Shown: one piece after another, positions 5,907-31,830 of the stretch | Layout: each line of letters opens with the position of its first letter | How positions within the stretch are numbered: the first letter of the stretch is position 1 | From: a virus | Taxonomy: Duplodnaviria; Caudoviricetes | Direction: 5' to 3' (one strand) | Length of the DNA stretch: 64,000 nucleotides | Virus record (IMG/VR): IMGVR_UViG_2974528084_000001 | Coordinates: 13,355-77,354 of that record | Position numbers and translations under genes: made by a program | The notes under the pieces: generated by a model | The model's input: the letters and a program-made list of their open reading frames with translations, nothing else | What the model was told of the DNA's origin: nothing | Databases searched by the model: none

Positions 5907-5980
5907 TGATCCATAGCTCAATTCGGCAGAGCGCCCGACTGTTAATCGGGTGGTTGTAGGTTCAAGTCCTACTGGGTCAG
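5907..5980 (+). tRNA. trnN: tRNA-Asn (anticodon GTT), CCA not encoded
   Basis: Acceptor TGATCCA/TGGGTCA, D-arm GCTC/GAGC, anticodon arm CCCGA-CTGTTAA-TCGGG, T-arm GTAGG-TTCAAGT-CCTAC, discriminator G. Confidence 0.95.
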
Positions 5981-6020
5981 CGCAGTACAGATGTCAACTA
6001 AGACCAGTGAAAGGGTCACC

Positions 6021-12900: not shown

Positions 12901-15900
12901 CAAGCTCGGCGGGTTCCTGTTCGGAGCGTTCACGTCTGCAATGGCGTGGCTTCTGCCGAAGCTTCCGGGGTTCATCTGGAATATCGTCAAGTTCTTCGCG
13001 ACCTTGCCGTTCAAGATCATCGGCGCACTCGTTGGGTTCGGCGCGAAGCTCCTCGGCTGGCTCGGTCAGGCCATCGCCTGGCTGGTGCCCCAGCTCCCAG
13101 GCATCGTCTGGGACATCATCACCTTCTTCGCAACGCTCCCGTTCAAGATCATTGGAGCACTGCTCGGGTTCGGCGCAAAGCTGTTCGAGTGGGCTAAGAA
13201 CGCATTCATCTGGCTCGCACAGAACTTGCCTGGTGTGATCGGCAACGTAATCAGCTTCTTCGCTGGCCTGCCAGGGAAGCTGATCGGAGCACTCCTTGGA
13301 CTCGGCTCGAAGCTGTTCGAGTGGGCGAAGAATGGGTTCATCTGGCTAGCTCAGAACCTGCCGAATGCCATCGGCGCAGTGCTTGACTTCGCCAAGGAGT
13401 TCCCCGGTCGAGTCATCCGAGGGTTTGGCAAGTGGGGTTCCTTCATCTGGGAGTGGATGAAGAAGGGCTGGGACTTCCTGGTCAACGAGATGCCAGGTAT
13501 CGTCGCTGGATTCCTGAAGTGGATCGGCGGCATTCCCGGAATGCTGCTCGGCAAGCTGGGTGACGGCGCCAAGGTGCTGTACGACTACGGCAAGGACATG
13601 ATCCAGGGCCTGATGAATGGCACCGCGGGTCTGCTCAAGAAGCTCGGCGACTGGTTCCTCGACAAGATTCCAGGCTGGATCAAGACGCCGTTCAAGAAGG
13701 CGCTCGGCATCGCATCGCCTTCGAAGGTCTTCGCTGGCTACGGCGTGAACATCGGCGAAGGTCTCGTCAAGGGCATTGGTAGCATGGAGGGCCAGGTCGA
13801 GCAAGCCTCGATCGCAATGGCTGCCGCAGCCGACAAGGGCGAAGTCGGAGGCATGGCTATCTCGGCCGTTGCTGACACTTCATCGGTGGGTGGCTCCGTG
13901 TCCGCACTAGGGGACGCCGTTGCAGCATCCGGGCCGGTGGCGGTCGATACGGCGGCGGAACCGACCGCCGACATCCAACCGATGCTCGACGCAGCCGAAG
14001 CAGCGTTCGACGCTTTCGATGCATCTATGCAGACGAAGATGGCAGCCTTCACTGCCGCAGTGACTCTTATGTTCGCTGCAATGGTGACGGGCATTTTGTC
14101 GTCCCTCGATCAGGTTACGATCGGAAGCGGTACCTCGTTTGCCGCAATGCAGGCGACTGTCGTCGGAATCGTGACCGCGATGGTGGCAGCTGTTCAGGCG
14201 CAGCTCGCGCTACTGATCAGCCACGTTACTCAGTTCGGACTTGCATTCACTGCGGCGTGGGCTGAAGCTTGGAACGCATGGAAGTCCGAGACCAGCCTCG
14301 GCGTCGATCACACTCTGTCCGAGTGGGAACGCATGGCGCAGGGTATGCGCGACATCTTCGACGGCGGCATCGCGCCGATCTTTGAAGACATGGCAAAGAT
14401 GTACACCACCCTGGAGGGTGCAACTAAGACGACCGTCGATAACGTCGGTACGACTTGGGCTGACATCGAACCCAAGACAAAGCGCCCCGCCGGTATCGTC
14501 ATTAACGAGGTCTACAACAACGGCCTGCGCGGAGCGTGGAACAAGTTCAACAGCTTCCTTGGTGTCGCAGAACTCCCGGCGTTCACCGTCGCATACGCAA
14601 CAGGTGGTCCCGTCCACGGACCCGGCACCGAGACCTCGGACAGCATTTACGCGAAGCTGTCGCGCGGTGAGCACGTCATTACCGCCGCCGAGGTTCGAGG
14701 CGCGGGCGGACACCAGGCCATCATGGCGCAGCGTCAGGTGTGGGCCGGACGTAAGCGGATGCAGGGTGTGGATCAAAGTATGCCAGCATTCGCTCGCGGC
14801 GGTCCGGTCGACCCGAAGGCTCCGCCGTGGCCCGGTGAGTCGAATCTGAAGCCTGCGGCTATTCTGGCTCGACGCAACATCCACAAGTACTGGCCGATGA
14901 TCGGCGAGATCGGCGGCTACCGCCCGAGTGACCCGTATCCAGACCATCCGTCGGGCCTTGCGCTCGACGTCATGGTCGGAGTCGGCAACCCGGTTGGCGA
15001 CGAGGTCAACGACTGGCTCCACAGGAACATGGTTCCGCTGGCGCTGAACTACACCATCTGGAAGCAGTTCTACAAGCCAGCCGGTGGTGGCGGTAACCTC
15101 ATGGGCGACCGAGGCGACCCGACGCAGAACCACATGGATCACGTGCACGCCTTGTTCAACAACAACGGCGTTCCCGGTATCACGACTGGTGGTATCGGTG
15201 GTTCGAGTGGTGGCGCTCCTATCGACTACAAGAAGATAGTCCAGGAGTCCTTTAAGGCGGACATGGACGAGGTTCGCAAGAACCTCCCGGCTATCCCCGG
15301 CGGCATCGGCCAGTGGCCGAAGATCAGCGCCGATGTAGCCGAGAAGATGGCGCTGAAGAAGCTCCTCCCGCTCGCGGAGAAGATGAGCATCTCCAGCGGG
15401 TCGGCTGCGTCCGCCTGGGCGGGAGCGCCTGACGCCTCCGTTGTGACTAAGGTCAAGGAGGCGATGAAGACTTATGGCTGGGACCAGGGCGCTGAATGGG
15501 AAGCACTCAACCAGCTGATCGGCCACGAGTCTTCGTGGAACCCGAACGCGCAGAACCCGAGTTCTACCGCGTACGGTCTGTTCCAGTTCCTCGATTCTAC
15601 CTGGGCAAGCGTCGGCGGTTCCAAGACCAGCGACCCCTACCAGCAGGCAATCTACGGCGGACGCTACATTAAGAACCGCTACGGCTCGCCGTCTGCAGCG
15701 TGGGCATTCTGGCAGAACCCGCAGCCGAATCCTTATGGTGGCAACTGGTACGACAATGGTGGAGTTCTTCCGCCCGGGCTCACGCTGGCCAACAACCAGA
15801 CTGGCGGACCTGAGGCTATCCTCACGGCGGCTCAGTGGAGCGCGATGTTCGACATCGCCACCAAGCCACCGCTTGACGAGGACACCATCCAGGGCGCGGT

Positions 15901-29954: not shown

Positions 29955-31160
29955 CTACTCCTTGATGAGCCGCTGCACAATCTTTGGCTTTGGCTCGCCG
30001 ATGCTCTCCTGGACGGACGATCGTAGCCTGGACTTCTGGGCTGCGTTCAGGGCGTTACCATTCAAGAGCTTGTCAATTTCACTGTTGTTGATCTTGCCAA
30101 GTGAAGCGAAGAGGTTATCCCCGATTATCTCTCGCACCGTCGCTGGATCGTAAGACTTCCGGCGGGACGACTTGAACACGACATGGTAGTCATCCGTATC
30201 GTATTCGATCTCGTCGTTCTCCATTGCATCTTCGAGCAGCTTTTCCATCACTTCTTCGATGGCGTACTTGATGGCCTTCTGGGCTCCCTCAAGTTCCACG
30301 TAACGCTTCGCCATCTCGTTGCGGTCGCCAGCCAGGGCCATGACCCCGCCTGCCTGTACGTTCTTCGTGAGAACGGGGCACGTAGCTTTCACTACGCAGA
30401 ACTGGCATTCCGAGTTGAGCGTGCGCTTGCCGGGCACAGGCTCGGCAATGATACGCTCGGCCACCTTGCGAACGTACTTCCAGGTGGCGACGTTGTCGTC
30501 GCGGGTGAACTTCACCTCGACGGGATCGTATCGGAGCTGATCGAAGCACACCCAGACCTCGTCGGGGTTGAGCTCGAACCCCAGCTCCTTGGCGATCTCT
30601 GCCTTGGCGAGCATGATAGCCAGACCGTACAGTCGGCCTTGCGCTTTCTGTCGCAAACCCTGCGGGGTGAGATGCTGACGCCAGGTCTTGTAGTCCACCA
30701 CGCGGACGATGGTCTTGCCGTTCTCCTCGAACATATCGAGACGATCGAAGATGAATGTGTACGGCACCTCGCCGATGGAGGTCTTGATGGTGACCCGAAT
30801 CTTGCGCTCGACCATGAGCACCTGAACCTTGTCGAGGTCGGTGCGTGCGAACCAGCGTTCGAGCATCTCAATGCCGTCGTTGTACAGGTCGTCCTTGGCA
30901 TCTGGAATGCGCATGAACTGCTTCATGAACTCTTGCTTGAAGTAAGCGACGAGTACATTCCAGTCTAGTTCCTCGCGGGTCTTGCTGATGTATACCTCGT
31001 CGACAATCCGCTCGAGTGAATCGTGCACGGCGGTGCCCAGCTTGGCTGGGTCCGAGCTACCCCCTGGGCTCGGCGTACGTTCAACCATCTCGGCGTGGTA
31101 CCTGAAGGTGCAACCCTCGAACACCTGGATGGAGGATGCCGAGATGGTTCTGAGTTCCAC
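29955..31160 (-). CDS. Cas4/RecB-family PD-(D/E)XK exonuclease with Fe-S cysteines
   Basis: ISASSI...CTFRY, GTAVH, FIFDRLD, VVDYKT, CQFCVVKATC. Likely GTG start at 31160 overlapping the WhiB stop (TAGTG). Confidence 0.88.
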   Translation of the reverse strand: MELRTISASSIQVFEGCTFRYHAEMVERTPSPGGSSDPAKLGTAVHDSLERIVDEVYISKTREELDWNVLVAYFKQEFMKQFMRIPDAKDDLYNDGIEMLERWFARTDLDKVQVLMVERKIRVTIKTSIGEVPYTFIFDRLDMFEENGKTIVRVVDYKTWRQHLTPQGLRQKAQGRLYGLAIMLAKAEIAKELGFELNPDEVWVCFDQLRYDPVEVKFTRDDNVATWKYVRKVAERIIAEPVPGKRTLNSECQFCVVKATCPVLTKNVQAGGVMALAGDRNEMAKRYVELEGAQKAIKYAIEEVMEKLLEDAMENDEIEYDTDDYHVVFKSSRRKSYDPATVREIIGDNLFASLGKINNSEIDKLLNGNALNAAQKSRLRSSVQESIGEPKPKIVQRLIKE

Positions 31161-31504
31161 TACTTGCTTCCCCTCTTCGTAGTAATGCCGCCCCATATGC
31201 CATCGGTCGAACCAGTGCGCTCGCGATAGTCGAGGCACTCGAGCTTAACGGGGCAGCTCATGCAAATCTTCTTCGCGCGATTAGCGCGGGCCGCTTGTCC
31301 CCGGCCAGGGAAGAACGCGTCTGGGTCGTGATACCCTACACAGAGGGCGCGTCGGGTCCACTCTTCGGGGACGAGACTGAAGGAGGCTTCGGGGGCGTCG
31401 GCGCCTGGGTCTCCGTACTCTTCTCCTTCTCCGCAGTCGCAAGGCTCTCCGGTTCGGTCGGGTCGAAGAGCGAGGGCTGCGCAGATTCCGTTGCACCTAA
31501 AGGG
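31160..31504 (-). CDS. whiB: WhiB-family Fe-S transcription factor domain lacking its own start codon; probable -1 frameshift product of 31336-31758
   Basis: Manual translation gives WTRRALC...DAFFP...KKICMSCPVKLEC...GIWGG. The frame is open from 31573 to TAG 31160 with no ATG/GTG/TTG before the domain. Missed by the ORF track. Confidence 0.8.
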   Translation of the reverse strand, partial: PFRCNGICAALALRPDRTGEPCDCGEGEEYGDPGADAPEASFSLVPEEWTRRALCVGYHDPDAFFPGRGQAARANRAKKICMSCPVKLECLDYRERTGSTDGIWGGITTKRGSK

Positions 31505-31758
31505 AGGCGCCCCCCGGACATCTCGAGCTCGAAAGCCGTCGTCGGCTCTTCGCCATCGAGCAGTTCGTCGGCGTCAGCTTGCGCATCAGCCTTGGCCTTC
31601 TGCTCCGACTGGAATGCCGTCTGCTGTAGGTGTGCTTCGAAGGCGGTCTGCGTGGGGGCCTTGGCTCGAAAGTCTTGGAACCCTTCCTGATCCATCCCTC
31701 CGCGCACCGGGTGCAACTCGTTGGGGCCAGCGGGCATTTTGAACTGCTGTTCAGTCAC
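31336..31758 (-). CDS. Hypothetical acidic protein (zero-frame partner of WhiB)
   Basis: AAGGAG RBS, GTG 31758. Contains C-CCT-TTA at 31504-31498 and QPSLF in its tail. Confidence 0.75.
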   Translation of the reverse strand: MTEQQFKMPAGPNELHPVRGGMDQEGFQDFRAKAPTQTAFEAHLQQTAFQSEQKAKADAQADADELLDGEEPTTAFELEMSGGRLPLGATESAQPSLFDPTEPESLATAEKEKSTETQAPTPPKPPSVSSPKSGPDAPSV

Positions 31759-31801
31759 TGCATTCTCCTTGTAGGTAGTGCTAGGCGGCGTGCTATACGT
31801 T

Positions 31802-31830
31802 AGCATACCGCACGGGTTTTACCCCGTAAA
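31802..31830 (-). promoter_or_regulatory. SigA-like promoter
   Basis: TTTACG-N17-TATGCT upstream of the 31758 gene. Confidence 0.5.

Follow-up and report, generated by a model that had tools for sequence, protein, structure and literature searches.

The stretch of DNA analysed here, referred to as the window, comprises 64,000 nucleotides (nt) of a tailed phage (IMG/VR record IMGVR_UViG_2974528084_000001, positions 13,355 to 77,354), and its minus strand encodes a WhiB domain that lacks a start codon of its own. The source phage genome is 77,354 bp long with terminal repeats, and the phages closest to it infect Gordonia terrae and belong to the genus Montyvirus; one of them, Diabla, is 94% identical across the locus. 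An upstream open reading frame (ORF), whose frame we call the zero frame, runs from GTG 31758, a start also annotated in relatives, to a TAG ending at 31336 and encodes 140 amino acids (aa). The WhiB domain lies in the -1 frame of this ORF; this frame is closed by TGA at 31576-31574, is open from 31573 to the TAG at 31162-31160 and contains no ATG, GTG or TTG before ATG 31261, which falls inside the domain after two of its four cysteines. The domain itself is complete (PF02467, E = 2.7e-16, 60.3 bits against a cut-off of 23.6), the nearest solved chains are a Streptomyces WhiB (8dy7_H, E = 2.3e-13) and WhiB1 (6ono_A), and C55, C81, C84 and C90 (C...C-x2-C-x5-C) together with G102, W104 and G106 are invariant in the alignment of relatives. 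Ahead of the domain, the -1 frame encodes an extension that we call the Cys4 module, consisting of C-x-G-x-C and, 13 residues on, C-x-C-G-E-G, followed by an acidic linker that leads into WhiB. A sequence-only reading of this locus had proposed that the Cys4 module and WhiB domain are fused to the product of the upstream ORF by a programmed -1 frameshift at the heptamer C CCT TTA. The coordinates given in that reading proved correct wherever they were checked. This proposal is supported by the comparative analysis reported below, and we consider it highly probable that a programmed -1 ribosomal frameshift yields a WhiB fusion of 199 aa (87 plus 112 aa, the length that had been claimed).

Properties that the sequence-only reading had given for the heptamer were confirmed. 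It stands in the correct register, with CCT and TTA being zero-frame codons of the ORF that begins at GTG 31758, and its A-site codon TTA is indeed rare, being the rarest leucine codon of the phage (12 of 17,537 codons, or 0.68 per 1000); in addition, TTC outnumbers TTT approximately 10 to 1. CCCTTTA occurs a single time in the whole genome, both strands included. Canonical heptamers of any kind number 16 on this strand, and the probability of finding one by chance, correctly registered, in the 75 nt that separate the upstream -1-frame stop from the first conserved Cys is therefore approximately 0.005.

We compared the locus with those of Monty-, Chelms-, Woes-, TIN2/3/4-, GMA7/GTE7/HayZem- and Demosthenes/Katyusha-like phages, with the distant loci of ReqiDocB7, Gmala1, Orchid, GMA3, Jumbo and Mbo2, with two IMG/VR contigs and with four metagenome contigs found via homologues of the zero-frame protein; the comparison thus includes phages of Gordonia, Tsukamurella and Rhodococcus as well as uncultivated contigs. 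A canonical heptamer was found in the right register and at the homologous position in all of the approximately 16 lineages, and both frames are kept open. CCCTTTA is present in the Monty-, Woes-, TIN-, GMA7/GTE7- and Demosthenes-like phages and in contigs L090, L092 and L095, and CCCAAAA is present in ReqiDocB7, Gmala1, Orchid, GMA3, Jumbo, Mbo2 and contigs L039 and L048. CCCTTTC was observed in one lineage only, the low-coverage ENA metagenome contig L094 (1.8x; positions 1055-1315). The -1 frame of this contig keeps the Cys4 module and then becomes nonsense before the WhiB domain, near the contig end, which reflects either an assembly error or a degenerate copy.

The exchange of TTT for AAA changes the encoded residue in both frames (Leu or Phe versus Lys) and retains slipperiness. 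No synonymous variation was found in the codons at the site, with Pro always being CCC, Phe TTT, Lys AAA and Arg AGR. From the heptamer on, the -1 frame shows the pattern P.R..C.G.C, then C.CGEG and then WhiB, and P1, R3, C4, G6, C8, C22, C24, G25, E26 and G27 are invariant over 11 lineages; the codons of the invariant Cys and Gly residues vary synonymously at their third positions (TGC/TGT and GGA/GGC/GGG/GGT). Fixed codons at the site and synonymous changes after it therefore point to a constraint on the nucleotides at the heptamer and on the protein downstream of it.

The distribution of stop and start codons leads to the same site. Between the heptamer and the WhiB stop, the -1 frame has no stop codon in any of 24 sequences (24/24), and the +1 frame has 2-14 in the same stretch, including 13 in the Orchid locus, which has a G+C content of 48%. 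In five lineages (Gmala1, Orchid, GMA3, Jumbo and L048) a -1-frame stop lies 0-1 codon upstream of the heptamer, and entry into this frame must therefore occur at the heptamer. The zero frame of Gmala1 terminates before the C.CGEG motif, and thus the motif is no by-product of zero-frame coding. In 11 of 18 lineages, the window included, the stretch from the heptamer to the first WhiB Cys is free of ATG, GTG and TTG. A tblastn search with the -1-frame product retrieved 106 phage records in which at least 80% of the product is covered in one frame.

We also counted the minimum number of changes per codon position (first/second/third) among the relatives, by region and frame. Upstream of the heptamer, the zero frame showed 64/57/132 changes. 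The part that encodes only WhiB showed 19/16/73 changes in the -1 frame, a pattern that indicates strong purifying selection on the WhiB domain. In the overlap, the -1-frame counts were 38/38/56; the most variable position is the third of the -1 frame, which is the second of the zero frame, and thus the -1 frame is the constrained frame in the overlap. The zero-frame tail has no codon-position signature of its own in these counts and shows no purifying selection of its own, and for this reason independent dual coding is not supported. The sequence-only reading had envisaged approximately 160 nt of dual-coding DNA; the overlap is real (162 nt from the heptamer to the zero-frame stop), and the dual coding found no support.

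The analysis establishes the anatomy of the locus, the conserved slippery site, selection on the -1-frame protein from this site on and the lack of a start codon, whereas the ribosomal nature of the shift, its efficiency and stimulators and the action of the fusion are inferred. Ribosomes that initiate at GTG 31758 would read the first 87 codons of the upstream gene, after which a fraction of them would slip one base back on C CCT TTA, either by tandem re-pairing of both tRNAs, from CCU to CCC in the P site and from UUA to UUU in the A site, or by P-site slippage while the rare UUA codon awaits its tRNA. The slipped ribosomes would read the Cys4 module, the acidic linker and the complete WhiB domain and would end at the TAG that overlaps the nuclease start, and ribosomes that do not slip would produce the 140-aa zero-frame protein, which shares the N-terminus and has a tail that is apparently free of constraint. 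In the clade of the window's phage, a WhiB domain with all four cluster cysteines can be made in no way other than by the shift, and recoding may, as suggested earlier, set the dose of the regulator. The features of the locus are given in Table 1.

Table 1. Coordinates of the features at the proposed WhiB frameshift locus (positions in the window)
Feature	Position	Strand	Remark
Shine-Dalgarno sequence AAGGAG of the zero-frame gene	31765..31770	-	read from the sequence; 6 nt before GTG
Zero-frame ORF, 140 aa plus stop	31336..31758	-	GTG 31758-31756 to TAG 31338-31336
G6 run	31510..31515	-	5 nt upstream of the heptamer; possible Shine-Dalgarno-like stimulator (putative function)
Slippery heptamer C CCT TTA (X XXY YYZ)	31498..31504	-	proposed -1 shift site
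-1-frame coding part, 112 codons (Cys4 module, acidic linker, WhiB domain)	31163..31498	-	would be read after the shift
Cys4 module	31424..31495	-	invariant residues; encoded in the -1 frame only
WhiB domain (PF02467), four Cys and GIWGG turn	31175..31360	-	Pfam profile match
33-aa stub from internal ATG	31160..31261	-	holds two of the four cluster Cys; annotated in relatives' records
Cas4-family (PD-(D/E)XK) nuclease gene, downstream	29955..31160	-	PF12705 recorded on homologues

Stimulatory elements were sought on both sides of the heptamer. The sequence-only reading had drawn attention to the G6 run; the run is present, and as a homopolymer it is not conserved (GGTGG, GGAGG, GGGGG or GAAGA in relatives). 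Its predicted pairing with the anti-Shine-Dalgarno sequence (-9.4 kcal/mol) is among the lowest 3% of the 16-nt segments of the locus, and a G-rich stretch with such pairing was found in 15 of 15 lineages, with a median among the lowest 5% of local segments and a variable, short spacing. Downstream of the heptamer, single-sequence folding gave z-scores of +0.4 to -1.8, not better than those of shuffled sequences. A downstream stimulatory structure is common, but not obligatory, in bacterial frameshift sites, and the rare A-site codon may promote the slip by itself.

Several observations weigh against a programmed frameshift here. The G-rich stretch lies 3-11 nt from the heptamer and also encodes a conserved Gly-Gly; the stimulator of dnaX is located roughly 10 nt from its slippery site, and the stretch here is closer. 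This close spacing and the Gly-Gly coding make it uncertain whether the stretch acts as a stimulator. RNAalifold detected no conserved stem-loop downstream (-2.2 and -0.2 kcal/mol), in a search that did not extend to pseudoknots. In addition, an in-frame ATG or GTG precedes the first WhiB Cys by 5-10 residues in some distant lineages, and distant phages with such a start may also produce a free-standing WhiB. An early GTG or ATG is annotated as the WhiB start in Demosthenes (777-977 of its locus) and Gmala1 (773-991), and the Shine-Dalgarno pairing of these early starts is weak, except in Demosthenes (-5.9 kcal/mol). Those distant phages may therefore have free and fused WhiB, whereas the clade of the window depends on the shift.

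The same fusion could also be obtained through RNA polymerase slippage, or another change in the transcript, near the heptamer or the G-rich run, which we regard as very unlikely. The G6 run of this phage does lie 5 nt upstream of the heptamer, and the comparison of lineages places the joining of the frames at this site without telling at which step it happens; however, the feature conserved among lineages is X XXY YYZ, including the TTT/AAA exchange, a pattern specific to tRNA re-pairing. Transcriptional slippage is known to be productive on A or T runs with a length of about 7 or more, and the T3 and A4 runs at the site are far below this length. Since no homopolymer is conserved, not even the G run, slippage at the transcript level finds little room. 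Marginally less credible still is translation of the -1-frame ORF on its own, by re-initiation or from a non-canonical start such as ATC 31486, which the sequence-only reading had named as a possible refutation. Non-canonical starts occur in actinobacteria, and AGGTG lies 8 nt before this ATC, but relatives have GTC, ATA or GCC in place of this codon, and initiation there would leave unexplained the residues P1, R3, C4 and G6, which lie upstream of it and are invariant across lineages. Moreover, in the five lineages mentioned above the -1 frame opens only at the heptamer, with the codons CCC AAA AGA, and re-initiation after the zero-frame stop would reach only ATG 31261, with the loss of two cluster cysteines.

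It is more improbable again that the 33-aa product from ATG 31261 is the real product and that the -1-frame sequence upstream of it is untranslated. This stub is the sole canonical ORF, several GenBank records name it a WhiB family transcription factor and PHROG 11832 was built from such stubs; nevertheless, of the four cluster-binding cysteines it is missing the first two, the domain segment that precedes the ATG has the same bias at codon position 3 and the same invariant residues as the rest, and the Cys4 extension is conserved at the protein level. Finally, a sequencing indel or recent pseudogenisation that broke one continuous ORF is scarcely conceivable, as it is favoured by the frame offset itself and nothing else. 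The same offset recurs in approximately 100 phage records that were sequenced independently and in several metagenome contigs, with origins in different laboratories and continents. Moreover, purifying selection on the WhiB domain is strong, and no relative was seen with a single continuous ORF, nor any in-frame fused homologue among annotated proteins of 77-245 aa.

Codons 1-87 of the zero-frame ORF encode the N-terminal part common to both products of the proposed frameshift. This shared part (31499-31758, minus strand) contains three TAF[EQ] repeats (QTAFE, QTAFQ and TTAFE) and a PAGPNELHP...DFRAK motif, which is also recognizable in distant lineages as H/N-P-[VIL] and then D-F-R/S/T-P/A-K. 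The zero-frame protein matches PHROG 6890 (E = 6e-67) and is labelled 'endonuclease' by RefSeq and PHROG 6890, although no family was matched in a Pfam search. After codon 87, the zero-frame ORF encodes a P/S/T/E/K-rich tail, and the length of this tail varies among lineages, in which it is P/S/T-rich and the overlap ranges from 99 to approximately 240 nt. The 140-aa product may act via the shared N-terminal part or may be a mere non-shifted by-product. A QPSLF motif in the tail was considered as a beta-clamp-binding motif, a reading that we rate as unlikely: the motif is kept in closer clades only, GMA7/GTE7, Demosthenes and every CCCAAAA lineage lack it, and the tail that holds it has no codon-position signature of its own. 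In the clade of the window, a beta-clamp-binding role of QPSLF has a low but not negligible probability.

The fusion would presumably be a WhiB-type iron-sulphur regulator that binds region 4 of the host sigma-A, with an extra metal-binding module and an N-terminal peptide. The 4Fe-4S cluster and the binding of sigma-A region 4 are suggested by homology to 8dy7 and 6ono, and the Cys4 module may bind a metal, judging from its four invariant cysteines. Structure prediction added little confidence for the module. AlphaFold2 modelled the 114-residue -1-frame product of the window, with 17 sequences, at a mean predicted local distance difference test (pLDDT) score of 55, and the extension scored <50; for the Gmala1 homologue (15 sequences) the mean was 67, with the Cys residues themselves poorly placed. 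An insert of approximately 30 residues separates the two Cys pairs in CCCAAAA lineages (Gmala1, GMA3, Jumbo and Orchid) and is lacking in the clade of the window; the insert of Gmala1 was predicted as a beta-hairpin (pLDDT of approximately 80). Foldseek searches against the Protein Data Bank returned WhiB3 and WhiB1 only, for the C-terminal domain and with E >0.1.

The proposed frameshift resembles several known systems, each in part. Transposases of the IS3 family of insertion sequences (OrfAB; IS911 and IS150) are produced by a programmed -1 frameshift at A AAA AAG, a site flanked by a Shine-Dalgarno-like stimulator on its 5' side and a structure on its 3' side. As in IS3 OrfAB, the downstream frame described here has no start of its own, its domain would be made only as a fusion through a -1 heptamer slip in the overlap, and the unshifted product has the same N-terminus. 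The locus described here differs from IS3 OrfAB in its heptamer (C CCT TTA or C CCA AAA), in its product, a transcription regulator and not a transposase, and in that the search for a downstream structure gave none. Similarly, the tail assembly chaperones G/GT of lambda and the actinophages involve a conserved -1 frameshift of tailed phages with a short and a long product that share an N-terminus; however, G/GT are a late structural pair whose ratio serves tail assembly, whereas the gene described here lies in the early or replication arm and the extension is a WhiB domain. The tau/gamma frameshift of Escherichia coli dnaX is likewise bacterial and of the -1 type and has a Shine-Dalgarno-like element upstream, as may be the case here, but it truncates the product and uses A AAA AAG, a Shine-Dalgarno sequence approximately 10 nt upstream and a strong hairpin, whereas the shift here extends the product, the G-rich stretch is at 3-11 nt and there is no evident hairpin. 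With regard to the heptamer, the re-pairing of an A-site UUA to UUU is shared with gag-pol of human immunodeficiency virus 1 (HIV-1; U UUU UUA), and the heptamer of Giardia lamblia virus, C CCU UUA, is one that we take to be identical to that of the window. HIV-1 and Giardia lamblia virus are eukaryotic viruses with a downstream pseudoknot or stem-loop, and the comparison extends to the heptamer alone.

Among WhiB-like (Wbl) regulators, such as Streptomyces WhiB (8dy7), Mycobacterium tuberculosis WhiB1 (6ono) and the WhiB of mycobacteriophage TM4, the likeness is confined to the C-terminal 62 residues, which match PF02467 as well as the WhiB and WhiB1 chains of solved structure. The Wbl proteins known so far comprise 66-130 aa, stand alone and have their own start, unlike the predicted fusion, which carries an 87-aa N-terminal peptide and the C.G.C...C.CGEG module. 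This Cys4 module is absent from the ten best-covering of 46 database homologues, and no annotated protein carrying the Cys4 extension was found. The mechanism is of a known kind; what is new is the gene, together with the architecture of its product and the extent of the missed annotation.

To our knowledge, annotated programmed frameshifts in tailed phages are found almost only in tail chaperone genes, and the tail chaperone frameshift is the sole one that is routine in actinophage annotation. In the public records of relatives, a 33-aa 'WhiB family transcription factor' is annotated from the internal ATG in Diabla (gp44), Breezic (gp41), BenoitCattle (gp41) and Ekhein (gp42), the interval is left unannotated in TIN2/3, GMA7, HayZem and Orchid, and a frameshift is annotated in none of the records examined. 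We found no publication on a WhiB frameshift in a search that did not cover subscription journals, and it is unmentioned in the papers on PRFect, on Streptomyces UUA recoding and on the Monty/Woes/Hotorobo and Katyusha genomes. Recognition of the frameshift would correct approximately 100 public records, each with a 33-aa 'WhiB' stub or no WhiB gene, and would define a WhiB architecture that is invisible to gene callers, namely an N-terminal peptide, a Cys4 module and WhiB. It would also place a frameshift in an early regulatory gene, as the one means of making a WhiB-type regulator, in a large group of phages that infect Gordonia, Tsukamurella and Rhodococcus. This compact bacterial frameshift site occurs in two natural heptamer variants, lacks an obvious RNA stimulator and may be useful for studies of recoding in high-G+C actinobacteria and of the dosing of a host-sigma-binding factor by phages.

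A more speculative possibility, which we consider doubtful, is that the shift serves as a regulatory sensor rather than a fixed-ratio device and that the frameshift-only Cys4 module is a second metal or redox site that modifies WhiB on host RNA polymerase. Both heptamer types place a codon that is very rare in the host (UUA or AAA) in the A site, and the yield of the fusion would then track the supply of the cognate tRNA, reminiscent of bldA-dependent UUA control in Streptomyces. If this were true, the phage would couple the take-over of host transcription to the physiological state of the host through recoding. The one tRNA gene of the window is a tRNA-Asn (GTT) at 5907-5981 on the plus strand, and no phage tRNA for UUA or AAA was found there.

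The WhiB TAG overlaps the start of the nuclease gene, as had been noted from the sequence, with its G being the first base of the GTG at 31160-31158, the start annotated in relatives. At the other end, of the expression signals that had been assigned to the upstream gene, AAGGAG and GTG 31758 were borne out and the promoter was not, as a simple sigma-70-type scan gave no match. An inverted repeat, ACGGG-GTAAAA-CCCGT (31812-31827, minus strand), lies approximately 45 nt upstream of AAGGAG in the gap after the preceding gene, and it could be an operator or a weak terminator.

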